A DNA stretch of 64,000 nt, from assembly GCF_045037415.1 (NCBI RefSeq), contig NZ_CP173438.1. One strand, given 5' to 3'. Origin of the DNA: Escherichia coli. Lineage in GTDB: Bacteria; Pseudomonadota; Gammaproteobacteria; Enterobacterales; Enterobacteriaceae. Under the pieces are notes generated by a model that had not been told where the DNA came from, did no database searches, and worked only from the letters and a program-made list of their open reading frames with translations. A program made the position numbers and the translations under genes. The first letter of the stretch is position 1; every line of letters starts with the position of its first letter. Positions 48,795 through 52,349 of this stretch are shown in pieces.

Positions 48795-49979
48795 ATGAAA
48801 AAAGTTATTTTATCTTTGGCTCTGGGCACGTTTGGTTTGGGGATGGCCGAATTTGGCATTATGGGCGTGCTCACGGAGCTGGCGCATAACGTAGGAATTT
48901 CGATTCCTGCCGCCGGGCATATGATCTCGTATTATGCGCTGGGGGTGGTGGTCGGTGCGCCAATCATCGCGCTTTTTTCCAGTCGCTACTCACTCAAACA
49001 TATCTTGTTGTTTCTGGTGGCGTTGTGCGTCATTGGCAACGCCATGTTCACGCTCTCTTCGTCTTACCTGATGCTCGCCATTGGTCGGCTGGTTTCCGGC
49101 TTCCCGCATGGTGCATTTTTTGGCGTCGGCGCGATCGTGTTATCAAAAATTATCAAACCCGGCAAAGTCACCGCCGCCGTGGCAGGGATGGTTTCCGGGA
49201 TGACAGTCGCCAATTTGCTGGGCATTCCACTGGGAACGTATTTAAGTCAGGAATTTAGCTGGCGTTACACCTTTTTGTTGATCGCTATTTTTAATATTGC
49301 GGTGATGGCATCGGTCTATTTTTGGGTGCCGGATATTCGCGACGAGGCGAAAGGAAAACTACGCGAACAATTTCACTTTTTACGCAGCCCTGCCCCGTGG
49401 TTAATTTTCGCTGCTACGATGTTTGGCAACGCAGGTGTGTTTGCCTGGTTCAGCTACGTAAAGCCATACATGATGTTTATTTCCGGTTTTTCGGAAACGG
49501 CGATGACCTTTATTATGATGTTAGTTGGGCTAGGGATGGTGCTGGGGAATATGCTAAGTGGCAGGATTTCAGGACGTTATTCACCACTGCGCATTGCAGC
49601 AGTGACTGACTTTATCATTGTACTGGCACTGCTGATGCTCTTTTTCTTCGGCGGTATGAAAACAACGTCGCTTATTTTTGCTTTTATTTGTTGCGCGGGA
49701 TTATTTGCCCTTTCAGCACCTCTACAAATATTATTACTGCAAAATGCCAAAGGCGGAGAGTTATTAGGTGCCGCAGGTGGGCAAATAGCGTTTAACCTCG
49801 GTAGCGCCGTCGGCGCATATTGCGGTGGTATGATGCTGACGCTGGGGCTGGCATATAATTACGTGGCGCTGCCCGCCGCCCTGCTTTCGTTTGCTGCGAT
49901 GTCGTCGTTGCTGCTGTATGGTCGCTATAAGCGCCAGCAAGCGGCGGATAGTCCGGTGCTGGCGAAACCACTGGGGTAG
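48795..49979 (+). CDS. araJ: MFS transporter AraJ (arabinose-inducible, substrate unknown)
   Basis: ORF 48711..49979 trimmed to Met29 (394 aa) MKKVILSLALGTFGLGMAEFGIMGVLTELA. Confidence 0.85.
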   Translation: MKKVILSLALGTFGLGMAEFGIMGVLTELAHNVGISIPAAGHMISYYALGVVVGAPIIALFSSRYSLKHILLFLVALCVIGNAMFTLSSSYLMLAIGRLVSGFPHGAFFGVGAIVLSKIIKPGKVTAAVAGMVSGMTVANLLGIPLGTYLSQEFSWRYTFLLIAIFNIAVMASVYFWVPDIRDEAKGKLREQFHFLRSPAPWLIFAATMFGNAGVFAWFSYVKPYMMFISGFSETAMTFIMMLVGLGMVLGNMLSGRISGRYSPLRIAAVTDFIIVLALLMLFFFGGMKTTSLIFAFICCAGLFALSAPLQILLLQNAKGGELLGAAGGQIAFNLGSAVGAYCGGMMLTLGLAYNYVALPAALLSFAAMSSLLLYGRYKRQQAADSPVLAKPLG

Positions 49980-50006
49980 ATTGCAGTCACGGTGCACGTT
50001 GCTTAT

Positions 50007-50223
50007 TGCCGGATGCGGCGTGAACGCCTTATCCGGCCTACGGGACTGTTCATTTTGTAGGCCTGATAAGACACGCCAGTGTCGCATCAGGCATCGGAGC
50101 ACCGGGGGGTTGCCGCCACTGTGCGCGTTATTTGTTGCCGGATGCGGCGCGAGCGCCTTATCCGGCCTACCGGACGGCTCACTTTGTAGGCCTGATAAGA
50201 CGCGGCAAGCGTCGCATCAGGCA
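50007..50223. repeat. BIME cluster: four REP elements in two tandem REP pairs between araJ and mak
   Basis: TGCCGGATGCGGCG(T/C)GA(A/G)CGCCTTATCCGGCCTAC occurs twice and GTAGGCCTGATAAGAC(A/G)CG..GTCGCATCAGGCA occurs twice in alternating order. Confidence 0.9.
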
Positions 50224-50247
50224 TGATACGCCAATTGCCTGGGTTTT

Positions 50248-51156
50248 TTACTCTTGTGGCCATAACCATGCAGCGCCGCGTACGCCGCTCGAATCACCAT
50301 GTTTCGCCTTGTGTACCGGCGTTTCACATTCTCCGCCGAAGACAAATTGTTTAATCAACTGCGGAACCGTTTGATATAAACGGTCTACATTGCTCATTCC
50401 GCCGCCCAGGACAATCACATCCGGATCGAGAATATTCACGACATGTGCCAGCGATTTTGCCAGCCGCAGCTCGTAGCGACGCAATGCCAGTTCCGCTACC
50501 GGATCGCTTTCTTCAACCAGGCGGATAATTTCACTGCCTTTCAGCGCATGTCCGCTCAAACGACGATAATCCGTCGCGAATCCCGTGCCTGAAATAAAGG
50601 TTTCAATACAACCTTGTTTACCGCAATAACAAGGGACTTCCTCGCGATAACGCAGTTCGTCTTCGTCCATCCACGGTAGCGGATTGTGTCCCCACTCGCC
50701 TGCCGTGCCATTGCCGCCGATATGCGCCCGCCCATTGAATGCCACGCCCGCGCCGCATCCCGTGCCGATAATCACGGCAAAAACCGTCTGCGCTCCCGCT
50801 GCCGCGCCATCTACCGCTTCTGAAACCGCCAGACAGTTGGCGTCATTTGCCAGCCGCACTTCCCGCTGCAACCGCGCGCTTAAGTCTTTATCGAATGGCT
50901 GACCGTTGAGCCAGGTTGAATTGGCATTCTTCACCACGCCGGTGTAGGGCGAAATCGAACCTGGAATGCCCATACCTACCGTTCCGCGCTGCCCTGTTGC
51001 CTGCTCCGCCATATCAACCAACGTGGCGATCGTTTCAATAGTCTGCCGGTAATCATCACGCGGCGTGGGCAGACGATGGCGGTACAACTGCTCCCCTGCA
51101 TCGCCCAATGCAATCACTTCAGTTTTGGTGCCGCCTAAATCGATACCTATACGCAC
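50248..51156 (-). CDS. mak: Fructokinase / manno(fructo)kinase Mak (ROK family)
   Basis: ORF 50248..51294 trimmed to GTG at codon 47 (302 aa) (V/M)[15 protein letters not shown]; AAGGAG SD upstream; ROK zinc motif CYCGKQGC. Confidence 0.85.
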
Positions 51157-51280
51157 GGTACTCTCCTTATTTTTTTCAATATCAATAGCGTAGAGACGGA
51201 CAACCGGATTGGCAATGCAAGGCCGCCGACAATTCGTTATCATGCCCGCTAAATTTAACGACAAGGCCGTGGAAATTATC

Positions 51281-52192
51281 ATGCTGTGGTTCAAAAATTT
51301 AATGGTTTACCGTCTTAGCCGCGAGATTTCGCTGCGTGCAGAAGAGATGGAAAAACAGCTAGCCTCGATGGCATTTACCCCATGCGGCAGCCAGGACATG
51401 GCGAAGATGGGCTGGGTACCTCCGATGGGATCGCACAGCGATGCGTTAACGCACGTTGCCAATGGTCAAATTGTTATCTGTGCGCGCAAAGAAGAAAAAA
51501 TCCTCCCGTCCCCGGTGATTAAACAGGCGCTGGAAGCGAAAATCGCCAAACTGGAAGCGGAACAGGTGCGTAAGCTGAAGAAAACCGAAAAAGATTCGCT
51601 GAAAGACGAAGTGCTGCACTCTCTGCTGCCGCGTGCTTTCAGCCGTTTTAGCCAGACAATGATGTGGATCGATACGGTTAACGGTTTGATTATGGTGGAC
51701 TGCGCCAGCGCCAAAAAAGCGGAAGATACGCTGGCACTGCTGCGTAAAAGCCTGGGGTCGTTACCGGTTGTACCATTGAGCATGGAAAACCCGATTGAAC
51801 TGACGCTGACCGAATGGGTACGTTCCGGCAGCGCGGCACAGGGCTTCCAGCTGCTTGATGAAGCCGAGCTGAAATCGTTGCTGGAAGATGGCGGCGTGAT
51901 CCGCGCGAAGAAACAAGATCTGACCAGCGAAGAGATCACCAACCACATTGAAGCCGGAAAAGTGGTGACTAAACTGGCGCTCGACTGGCAGCAGCGCATT
52001 CAGTTTGTGATGTGCGACGATGGTTCGCTCAAGCGTCTGAAGTTCTGCGACGAGCTGCGCGATCAAAACGAAGATATCGACCGTGAAGATTTCGCCCAGC
52101 GCTTTGATGCCGATTTCATCCTGATGACTGGTGAACTGGCAGCGTTAATTCAAAACCTGATTGAAGGATTAGGTGGCGAAGCACAACGTTAA
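51281..52192 (+). CDS. rdgC: Recombination-associated protein RdgC
   Basis: ORF 51209..52192 trimmed to Met25 (303 aa) [27 protein letters not shown]. Confidence 0.9.
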
Positions 52193-52208: not shown

Positions 52209-52247
52209 AATGCCGGATGCGACGCCTGCCGCGTCTTATCCGGCGTA
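52209..52247. repeat. REP element downstream of rdgC
   Basis: AATGCCGGATGCGACGCCTGCCGCGTCTTATCCGGCGTAC palindromic REP-like unit. Confidence 0.7.
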
Positions 52248-52349
52248 CGAAGCCACACCAGGAATATAATCGTTAGCTACAGCGGGCAATAATTCTTAGC
52301 GCAGCAATATTATGCGTTTTATGCTGTAACTTGCTCCAGGGGCGTTGTG

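Follow-up and report, generated by a model that had tools for sequence, protein, structure and literature searches.

A BIME-2 array of two diverged Y-S-Z2 doublets between the convergent genes araJ and mak of Escherichia coli

The araJ-mak Locus

araJ, which encodes an MFS transporter, and mak, which encodes a fructokinase (manno(fructo)kinase), are convergent genes in the 64-kb stretch of Escherichia coli DNA analyzed here, hereafter called the window. The spacer between them (49980-50247, 268 bp) is mostly taken up by four REPs, which together make up a 218-bp feature (Table 1). RefSeq records that are 100% identical to the window annotate exactly araJ and mak as the flanking genes, in agreement with an earlier note on this DNA that had placed the array between them. 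The gene starts at 48795 and 51156 derive from the RefSeq lengths of araJ (1185 nt) and mak (909 nt), respectively. The K-12 RefSeq record annotates no REP features and supplies no curated REP name for the array.

To the right of the array, ATGATACGCCAATT (50223-50236), which includes the last two bases of REP 4, resembles the generic BIME-2 flank motif ATCGGAGCACAATT. The alternative 6-bp stem (-9.9 kcal/mol) that precedes a T6 run at 50244-50249 needs REP 4 to be unfolded, whereas the fold that keeps the REP reaches -24.0 kcal/mol. A terminator scan of 49600-50600 found no intrinsic terminator on either strand, and the spacer, which lacks a GC-rich hairpin followed directly by a T run, is not an intrinsic (Rho-independent) terminator. 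Long open reading frames that cross the array (e.g., 49891-50226 on the + strand and 50087-50269 on the - strand) are probably artifacts of the GC-rich repeats, as judged by their position. A promoter scan returned one promoter-like site within araJ, which is no more than chance would give.

Table 1. Features of the araJ-mak spacer and its flanking genes, in window coordinates.
Feature	Coordinates	Strand	Basis or remark
araJ (MFS transporter)	48795..49979	+	ORF end at 49979; 1185-nt RefSeq araJ under 100%-identical matches
araJ stop codon TAG	49977-49979	+	ORF list
Last 11 nt of araJ and 27-nt spacer ahead of REP 1	49969..50006	+	Local alignment reaches 49969
REP 1, Y type (TGCCGGATGCGGCGTGAACGCCTTATCCGGCCTAC)	50007..50041	+	REP pattern; hairpin -21.3 kcal/mol (+ strand), -20.9 kcal/mol (- strand)
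S linker 1, tail-to-tail, 15 nt, GGGACTGTTCATTTT	50042..50056		73% identical to S linker 2
REP 2, Z2 type (ATGCCTGATGCGACACTGGCGTGTCTTATCAGGCCTAC on - strand)	50057..50094	-	Inverted relative to REP 1; hairpin about -20 kcal/mol
Head-to-head linker, 41 nt	50095..50135		CGGAGCAC first, then a diverged copy of 49969-50006
REP 3, Y type	50136..50170	+	Differs from REP 1 at two loop bases and nowhere else
S linker 2, 15 nt, CGGACGGCTCACTTT	50171..50185		REP pattern and unit comparison
REP 4, Z2 type	50186..50224	-	Inverted; REP pattern
Right flank as far as the mak stop codon	50225..50247		Flank comparison
mak stop codon TAA	50250-50248	-	ORF list and RefSeq
mak (fructokinase/manno(fructo)kinase)	50248..51156	-	ORF list; 909-nt RefSeq mak

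The Four REPs

The spacer contains exactly four REPs, on the +, -, +, and - strands, as defined by a head/tail REP pattern with a variable loop. This pattern was used in place of a fixed-spacing one, which matched one of the four REPs, and it shifts the REP ends by 1-2 nt (50008-50041, 50057-50092, 50137-50170, and 50186-50222). A general repeat search reported no inverted repeats at its settings; the REP palindromes came from the dedicated pattern. In shuffles of the window, 0.00 matches to the REP consensus are expected; the window itself otherwise holds one REP, a single copy at 52212-52248.

REPs 1 and 3 (Y1 and Y2) are 34-35-nt Y units of the form GCCGGATGCGGCG....CGCCTTATCCGGCCTAC, and REPs 2 and 4 (Z2a and Z2b) are 36-39-nt Z2 units of the form GCCTGATGCGAC...GTCTTATCAGGCCTAC in the opposite orientation. 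Hairpins of the individual REPs reach -20 to -22 kcal/mol on either strand (z scores of -3.9 to -5.9), and the inverted doublet of unit 2 can fold as one long hairpin of about -50 kcal/mol. The spacer as a whole is also folded far more stably than its shuffled controls, with z scores of -4.6 and -3.8 for the two strands. The REP pattern, the hairpin folds, and the shuffle expectation bear out the earlier note's description of four REPs in two pairs.

Classification as a BIME-2

The araJ-mak feature is a BIME-2 of the Y/Z2 class, composed of two Y-S-Z2 doublets in direct repeat within a shared 3' untranslated spacer. Its REPs are Y and Z2, with no Z1 among them, and they fit the patterns of 76 Y-S-Z2 units from elsewhere with at most three mismatches. 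The partner REPs are called as other than Z1 on the basis of a short consensus that we take to be that of Z1, and the Z2 REPs also fit the naRNA4 model in its Z2 half. The REPs alternate in orientation and pair tail-to-tail across S linkers of 15 nt each, which compares with 10-25 nt at background BIME-2 loci. The doublets recur with a period of 129-130 nt and are joined by a head-to-head linker of the s/l/r type, whose CGGAGCAC motif also lies between units at other BIME-2 loci (e.g., L012) and whose remaining 33 nt are locus-specific. The number of copies differs between strains, as judged from the spread among 60 sampled genomes and from counts of diagnostic junctions.

These properties are those of the BIME-2 family described by Gilson, Bachellier and Hofnung, in which Z2 and Y REPs form multiple tandem copies with a short S linker and s/l/r flanks (summarized in PMC3333891). 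BIME-2 linkers differ between loci, same-locus tandem copies are well conserved, and copy number varies between strains (PMC3333891). The window shares with this family the alternating inverted Y and Z2 REPs, the short S linker, the head-to-head linker, the tandem units, the extragenic site, and the strain-variable copy number, and it differs from it in no respect of kind. What the earlier note had called a tandemly duplicated BIME is the normal architecture of the class, since BIME-2 elements consist of tandem Y+Z2 doublets; the BIME identity itself stands. The window allele departs from the family in degree: its head-to-head linker is unusually long (41 nt) and locus-specific, and its two units have 88% core identity, whereas typical same-locus units have 96%.

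Alleles across E. coli

The spacer was surveyed in 5426 complete E. coli genomes with the ends of araJ and mak only as the query; it matched 5424 genomes, and in 5302 of these the match ran across the spacer. Spacer lengths were sampled in 60 genomes spread down the ranking. The window's four-REP spacer of 268 nt is present in 12 of them, and the flanks of all 12 are 98.7% or more identical to the window; 11 of these genomes have exactly 268 bp, and the twelfth differs only by an IS1 in araJ. K-12-type four-REP spacers of 244-246 nt occur in 15 genomes, two-REP spacers of 127-143 nt in 31, and flanks split by more than 800 nt in 2.

Diagnostic junctions extend this picture to the full set of genomes. 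Of the 5426 genomes, 1037 (19.1%) contain the 41-nt head-to-head linker, each in a single copy at this locus only, and in 1036 the identity is 95% or higher. Its carriers include CFT073, ATCC 25922, F11, and a Nissle 1917 derivative, which we take to be phylogroup B2 strains. The K-12-type junction (Z2-CGGAGCACTTAT-Y) is found in 1382 genomes (25.5%), in single copy except for one genome that has two. About 55% of genomes have neither four-REP junction, and most of these have one Y-S-Z2 doublet, as judged from the 60-genome sample.

REP copy number at araJ-mak differs between strains, as the earlier note had expected, and the four-REP arrangement is not identical in all strains. The further expectation of a strain-typing polymorphism is not supported: the window allele occurs as a single copy that is fixed in a lineage, its spacer is kept in all 12 sampled relatives, and the variation marks lineages rather than individual strains. 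The three common spacer alleles are easily typed. In the small sample of 60 genomes they follow flank similarity, and they could therefore serve as a cheap PCR-length marker.

The K-12 mak-araJ BIME-2 (NC_000913, 411053-411296) lies at the same locus between the same genes and also contains four REPs in the order Y-Z2-Y-Z2. Its head-to-head linker opens with the same CGGAGCAC motif as the window's, but it is short and generic, with 12 nt that amount to CGGAGCAC plus TTAT, whereas the 41-nt linker of the window carries copied upstream flank. Both K-12 S linkers are of the GGTTCTGGCAC type, to which the two S linkers of the window are 56-67% identical. The Y-S-Z2 core of the araJ-proximal K-12 unit is identical to the single unit of the two-REP allele, and the mak-proximal K-12 unit is 94% identical to the araJ-proximal one. 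REP 4 of the window has the sequence of the Z2 in the mak-proximal K-12 unit and is one base apart from the single Z2 of the two-REP allele (GTAGG vs GCAGG). The K-12 array looks like a separate, younger amplification. The simplest reading of these sequences would be two independent amplifications at araJ-mak, of which the window's is probably the older in this unrooted comparison. A contig scan of other Escherichia species recovered no araJ-mak locus.

The araJ-mak BIME-2 is also a landing site for REP-specific IS elements, as seen directly in other strains. Both split genomes of the 60-genome sample carry a REP-targeting IS in the Z2 REP of the two-REP allele: strain P31_YH1_02.21 has IS1397 within the Z2 loop (between GTAGGCCTGATAAGACGCG and GCAAGCGTCGCATCAGGCAT), and in strain VL46, IS621 sits at the GTAG foot of Z2. 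IS1397 and IS621 are REP-specific inserters (PMC1525189), and their insertion sites in Z2 agree with the published specificity. The flanks are too far apart to be joined in 122 genomes (about 2%), two of which provide the IS identities given here.

Divergence of the Two Units

The two units are considerably diverged. Without gaps, the repeat is 85% identical over 98 nt and 90% identical over another 20 nt, and the best local alignment (49969-50094 vs 50100-50224) has 106 identical columns of 127 (83.5%), with 18 substitutions and 3 gap columns. The units had been described as near-identical, with only a few substitutions between them, and the alignment contradicts this. Tandem Repeats Finder, run on 49500-50700 at its lowest score threshold (30), reported nothing because two copies with this much divergence fall short of scoring.

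The REP stems contain no uncompensated change. The Y REPs are 94% identical, with both differences in the loop, and the Z2 REPs are 90% identical, with one loop substitution, one loop indel, and one compensatory stem pair, where REP 2 carries A-T and REP 4 has G-C. The S linkers differ by substitutions (73% identity), and the sequences upstream of the Y REPs (49969-50006 vs 50100-50135) differ by substitutions and a 2-nt gap (71% identity). The non-REP parts, at 71-73% identity, have thus drifted by nearly 30%.

A background set of 76 Y-S-Z2 units, drawn from 35 loci in the genomes of other Escherichia and of Pseudocitrobacter and Citrobacter, places this divergence in context. Tandem units at the same locus have a mean identity of 95.6% in the Y-S-Z2 core and 91% in the S linker, and units from different loci have means of 85.0% and 48%, respectively. 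The two units of the window have 88.4% core identity and 73% S linker identity. For the core, 18% of between-locus pairs are as good as the window pair and 1.7% of same-locus pairs are as bad; for the S linker, the corresponding values are 7% and 5.6%. In E. whittamii, the dld-pbpG BIME-2 (L020) is 90.7-90.8% identical to each window unit, a higher value than that between the two window units. For this reason, no signal of a local origin can be read from the REP parts.

Origin of the Array

The local origin of the duplication is supported by sequence outside the REPs. The stretch just upstream of REP 1 (49981-50006) matches the end of the head-to-head linker (50110-50135) in register at 19 of 26 positions (P = 2.3e-6), and the alignment of the units runs on across the araJ stop codon. 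The sequence upstream of Y1 has no counterpart at 35 other BIME-2 loci, and so it is not a generic BIME motif. The argument rests on register because the similarity between linker and left flank is at chance level in a free search. We propose that one doublet, together with about 26-38 nt of locus-specific upstream sequence, was amplified in tandem and in place long ago. The mechanism may have been unequal exchange, slippage, or recombination of the BIME by TnpA(REP), the REP-associated transposase of E. coli, which cleaves and recombines BIMEs in vitro (PMC3333891). The non-REP parts would then have drifted to about 72% identity, and the REP stems may have been kept by selection or gene conversion.

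An alternative would derive the second doublet, or else the inner Z2a-linker-Y2 block, from a different locus, with insertion into the S linker of an ancestral two-REP allele either through movement of a REP doublet by TnpA(REP)/RAYT, as in REPINs, or through gene conversion. The left flank, Y1, Z2b, and the right flank are indeed at or near identity with the two-REP allele, and the inner 144 nt (50042-50185) stand in place of its 18-nt S linker. The unit cores are also no more alike than those of unrelated BIME-2 units, with the E. whittamii paralog closer, and the in vitro activity of TnpA(REP) would suit such a transfer. However, a search for a donor with the linker by blastn against the 5426 E. 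coli genomes matched the araJ-mak locus alone, and when the linker was compared by Smith-Waterman with 353 kb of BIME-2-rich loci, no match rose above chance; neither these genomes nor the 35 other BIME-2 loci hold a second copy of it. The linker resembles instead the sequence of its own locus upstream of Y1, in register, the homology may reach into the araJ stop codon, and the two S linkers are more alike than 93% of between-locus pairs. Like REPIN/RAYT systems, the array has an inverted REP doublet that can fold as one long hairpin, but no RAYT gene adjoins araJ-mak, there is no sign of copy movement, and the flank homology points to amplification in place. An origin at another locus is thus unlikely.

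A further alternative is that the units are the product of a recent, strain-level slippage duplication of one REP pair, which would yield near-identical units and a fast strain-typing marker. The direct repeat with its 129-130-nt period, the in-register homology that takes in non-REP flank, and the variable number of REPs at this locus would all suit such an event. The identity of 83.5% overall and 71-73% in the non-REP parts would not, and by the standards of the family, in which tandem units at one locus average 95.6% and only 1.7% of pairs have diverged this far, the window pair is unusually diverged, which leaves the word "recent" unsupported. The linker is moreover present once each in 1037 genomes, at 95% identity or more in 1036, and 12 of 12 sampled close relatives keep the spacer. 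A recent duplication is very improbable on these grounds; the duplication in the window, as judged from sequence divergence and distribution, is old and not fresh. Of the "recent local duplication" that the earlier note had proposed, the local part is upheld by the in-register match, and the recent part is contradicted by the 88.4% core identity and the 1037-genome allele.

Relation to naRNA4 and BIME-1

naRNA4 (RF02564) is the only Rfam family to which the array has similarity beyond noise (e.g., mir-4863), with scores of 37-40 bits and a best score of 40.5 bits. All matches in the window fall below the gathering threshold of 59.5 bits, and the array is accordingly not a member of the family. 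The naRNA4 model describes a Z2-short linker-Y head-to-head module, and the window allele falls below its threshold because its linker is 41 nt long. CFT073, which has the same allele as the window, has no naRNA4 match at gathering. The K-12 and ES5 alleles of araJ-mak score 79.8 and 72 bits, respectively, and arrays at other loci in other species score 60-92 bits. The naRNA4 model therefore detects generic BIME-2 modules and not a specific gene. The Rfam naRNA4 family is not specific to REP325, which is worth bearing in mind for annotators.

It is conceivable that the array encodes a functional RNA of the naRNA4 type, a nucleoid-associated RNA from REP325, beyond its role as a 3'-UTR or DNA element. 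The Rfam similarity is to naRNA4 alone, and about 80% of annotated E. coli REPs are reported as transcribed (PMC4550694). REP325 (Qian et al. 2015) is likewise a tandem BIME-2 array of the same Y and Z2 palindromic units; by comparison, the window has two units instead of six, a long linker, and no sign of a processed RNA. The 41-nt linker breaks the Z2-short linker-Y module on which the model is built, every match is under threshold, and the scores of the K-12 allele and of other arrays mark the model as generic, all of which makes such an RNA highly improbable.

An IHF-binding BIME-1 of the RIB/RIP type, with which the array shares paired inverted REPs in an intergenic spacer and nothing more, is almost certainly the wrong reading: BIME-1 elements are single copies of Z1+Y with a long conserved L linker that often has an IHF site (PMC3333891), whereas the window has tandem doublets with 36-37-nt Z2 partners instead of Z1, 15-nt tail-to-tail linkers, and no IHF consensus (WATCAANNNNTTR) in the spacer at 0, 1, or 2 mismatches, against 2.3 matches expected at two or fewer from the density in the window. 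The BIME-1/IHF reading is rejected because of this lack of a consensus match, and the IHF binding that the earlier note had suggested belongs to the L linker of BIME-1 (PMC3333891).

Function and Significance

The REP array may act on the 3' ends of both flanking genes, as judged by analogy with its family. The REP hairpins, at -20 to -22 kcal/mol each, would serve as barriers to 3'-to-5' exonucleases on either transcript, which would define and stabilize the 3' ends of the araJ and mak mRNAs. The array may also limit read-through into the opposing gene, and Espeli et al. in 2001 reportedly linked attenuation of read-through to Rho. A REP that acts as a 3'-exonuclease barrier stabilizes upstream mRNA (PMC12306157). 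In addition, the array DNA is a candidate gyrase site where convergent transcription would pile up positive supercoils. Gyrase binding would make sense here because such supercoils accumulate between convergent genes. Gyrase cleavage is over-represented in BIME-2 elements, mainly in Y REPs, and strong sites are found in only a subset of BIME-2 (PMC6379681). The available supplement text of this gyrase map does not mention araJ, and its matches to "mak" are unrelated words.

Y1 is 28 nt away from the araJ stop codon, and Z2b is 25 nt away from that of mak. Stalling of ribosomes at stop codons needs a REP hairpin within about 15 nt, and at these distances the array does not belong to the REPs that cause it. 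This class of REPs, which directly follow stop codons and stall ribosomes, is cited in PMC12306157 (its ref. 17).

Considered as a whole, the account of the feature as a BIME-2 that arose by an old local amplification, with roles at 3' ends and for gyrase that are inferred from its family, is very probably correct. The element is a textbook one of a known kind, strain-to-strain variation in BIME-2 copy number is already documented, and the finding matters little in this respect; it holds no new biology, as the earlier note had also judged. It is very improbable that the four-REP allele with its long G-rich linker alters 3'-end processing, stability, or read-through of araJ and mak, or gyrase activity, relative to the other alleles. 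If it did, the spacer would underlie a small heritable difference in expression between E. coli lineages and would not be a neutral repeat polymorphism. On the reading favored here, araJ-mak would offer a clear case in nature of one BIME-2 that was amplified on two separate occasions.

Possible sequence turnover at the araJ-mak spacer

The two sides of the araJ-mak BIME differ in their similarity between E. coli CFT073 (L005) and the window. Over window positions 49480-50750, araJ is 96.8% identical across its last 500 nt, whereas mak reaches 99.6% across its last 503 nt. Alleles also vary widely in the stretch preceding Y1, the araJ-proximal REP, where about 7 of 27 positions differ in K-12 by hand count. 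These sequence comparisons hint that the BIME may be a recombination boundary or a site of fast turnover. In one genome, the K-12-type head-to-head junction is matched at two places, and this genome probably carries a six-REP (three-unit) araJ-mak allele.

An alternative stem is possible at the mak-proximal edge of the BIME, between CAGGCA (50218-50223) and TGCCTG (50236-50241); next come GG and a T6 run, which overlaps the mak stop codon. For the araJ transcript, this stem would amount to a weak terminator-like hairpin, in competition with the mak-proximal Z2 REP (REP 4). The stem forms only when that REP is excluded, with a fold of -9.9 kcal/mol versus -24.0 kcal/mol when REP 4 is kept.

Coordinates of features in the window and in comparison loci (L0xx) from other genomes
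Feature	Location	Strand	Remarks
Weak terminator-like hairpin, araJ transcript (candidate)	window 50218-50249	+	CAGGCA/TGCCTG pairing
Lone REP	window 52212-52248	+	just downstream of rdgC-side ORF (51209-52192)
IS1397 in araJ-mak spacer	L041 4381-5395		E. coli P31_YH1_02.21
IS621 in araJ-mak spacer	L042 4381-5700		E. coli VL46
araJ broken by IS1	L043 382-1149		E. coli AVS0193
BIME-2 array	L037 946-2503		Escherichia sp. MOD1-EC7003
naRNA4 above threshold	L001 1135-1214
naRNA4 above threshold	L003 584-663
naRNA4 above threshold	L012
naRNA4 above threshold	L037
naRNA4 above threshold	L006

Insertion sequences at araJ-mak

The araJ and mak ends are too distant to join in approximately 122 of 5424 genomes, two of which were inspected. 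In strain P31_YH1_02.21, the IS3-family element IS1397, whose transposase annotation is partial, lies exactly in the Z2 REP loop of a two-REP allele and is bordered by the REP halves GTAGGCCTGATAAGACGCG and GCAAGCGTCGCATCAGGCAT. In VL46, the Z2 REP carries IS621 at its GTAG foot; IS621 belongs to the IS110 family and is known to target REPs (PMC1525189). Strain AVS0193 has IS1 within araJ itself and otherwise carries the exact four-REP allele of the window.

REP and BIME-2 elements at other loci

The lone REP in the window is a hybrid composed of a Y-like outer stem (GCCGGATG...CATCCGGC) and a Z2-like inner stem and loop (CGACGCCTGCCGCGTC), and its tail is GGCGTAC rather than GGCCTAC.

The BIME-2 array of MOD1-EC7003 is very long, with at least 17 tandem Y-S-Z2 units at a 92-nt period. 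E. albertii (L006) and E. whittamii (L018) have four-unit arrays with near-identical S linkers, which suggests that the three arrays are one locus whose copy number differs greatly between species. A perfect E. coli-type Y-S-Z2 doublet is also present in the assembly of Alkalicoccobacillus porphyridii (Bacillales), on a tiny 720-bp contig with a low coverage of about 1 (L023, NZ_VLXZ01000038.1), and most likely reflects enterobacterial contamination.

Specificity of the naRNA4 model

Generic BIME-2 head-to-head modules exceed the gathering threshold of the Rfam naRNA4 model (RF02564) at several loci, in several species, and the K-12 mak-araJ spacer is among them (79.8 bits). Because such generic modules pass the threshold, RF02564 matches mark BIME-2 modules and not specifically REP325 RNA.
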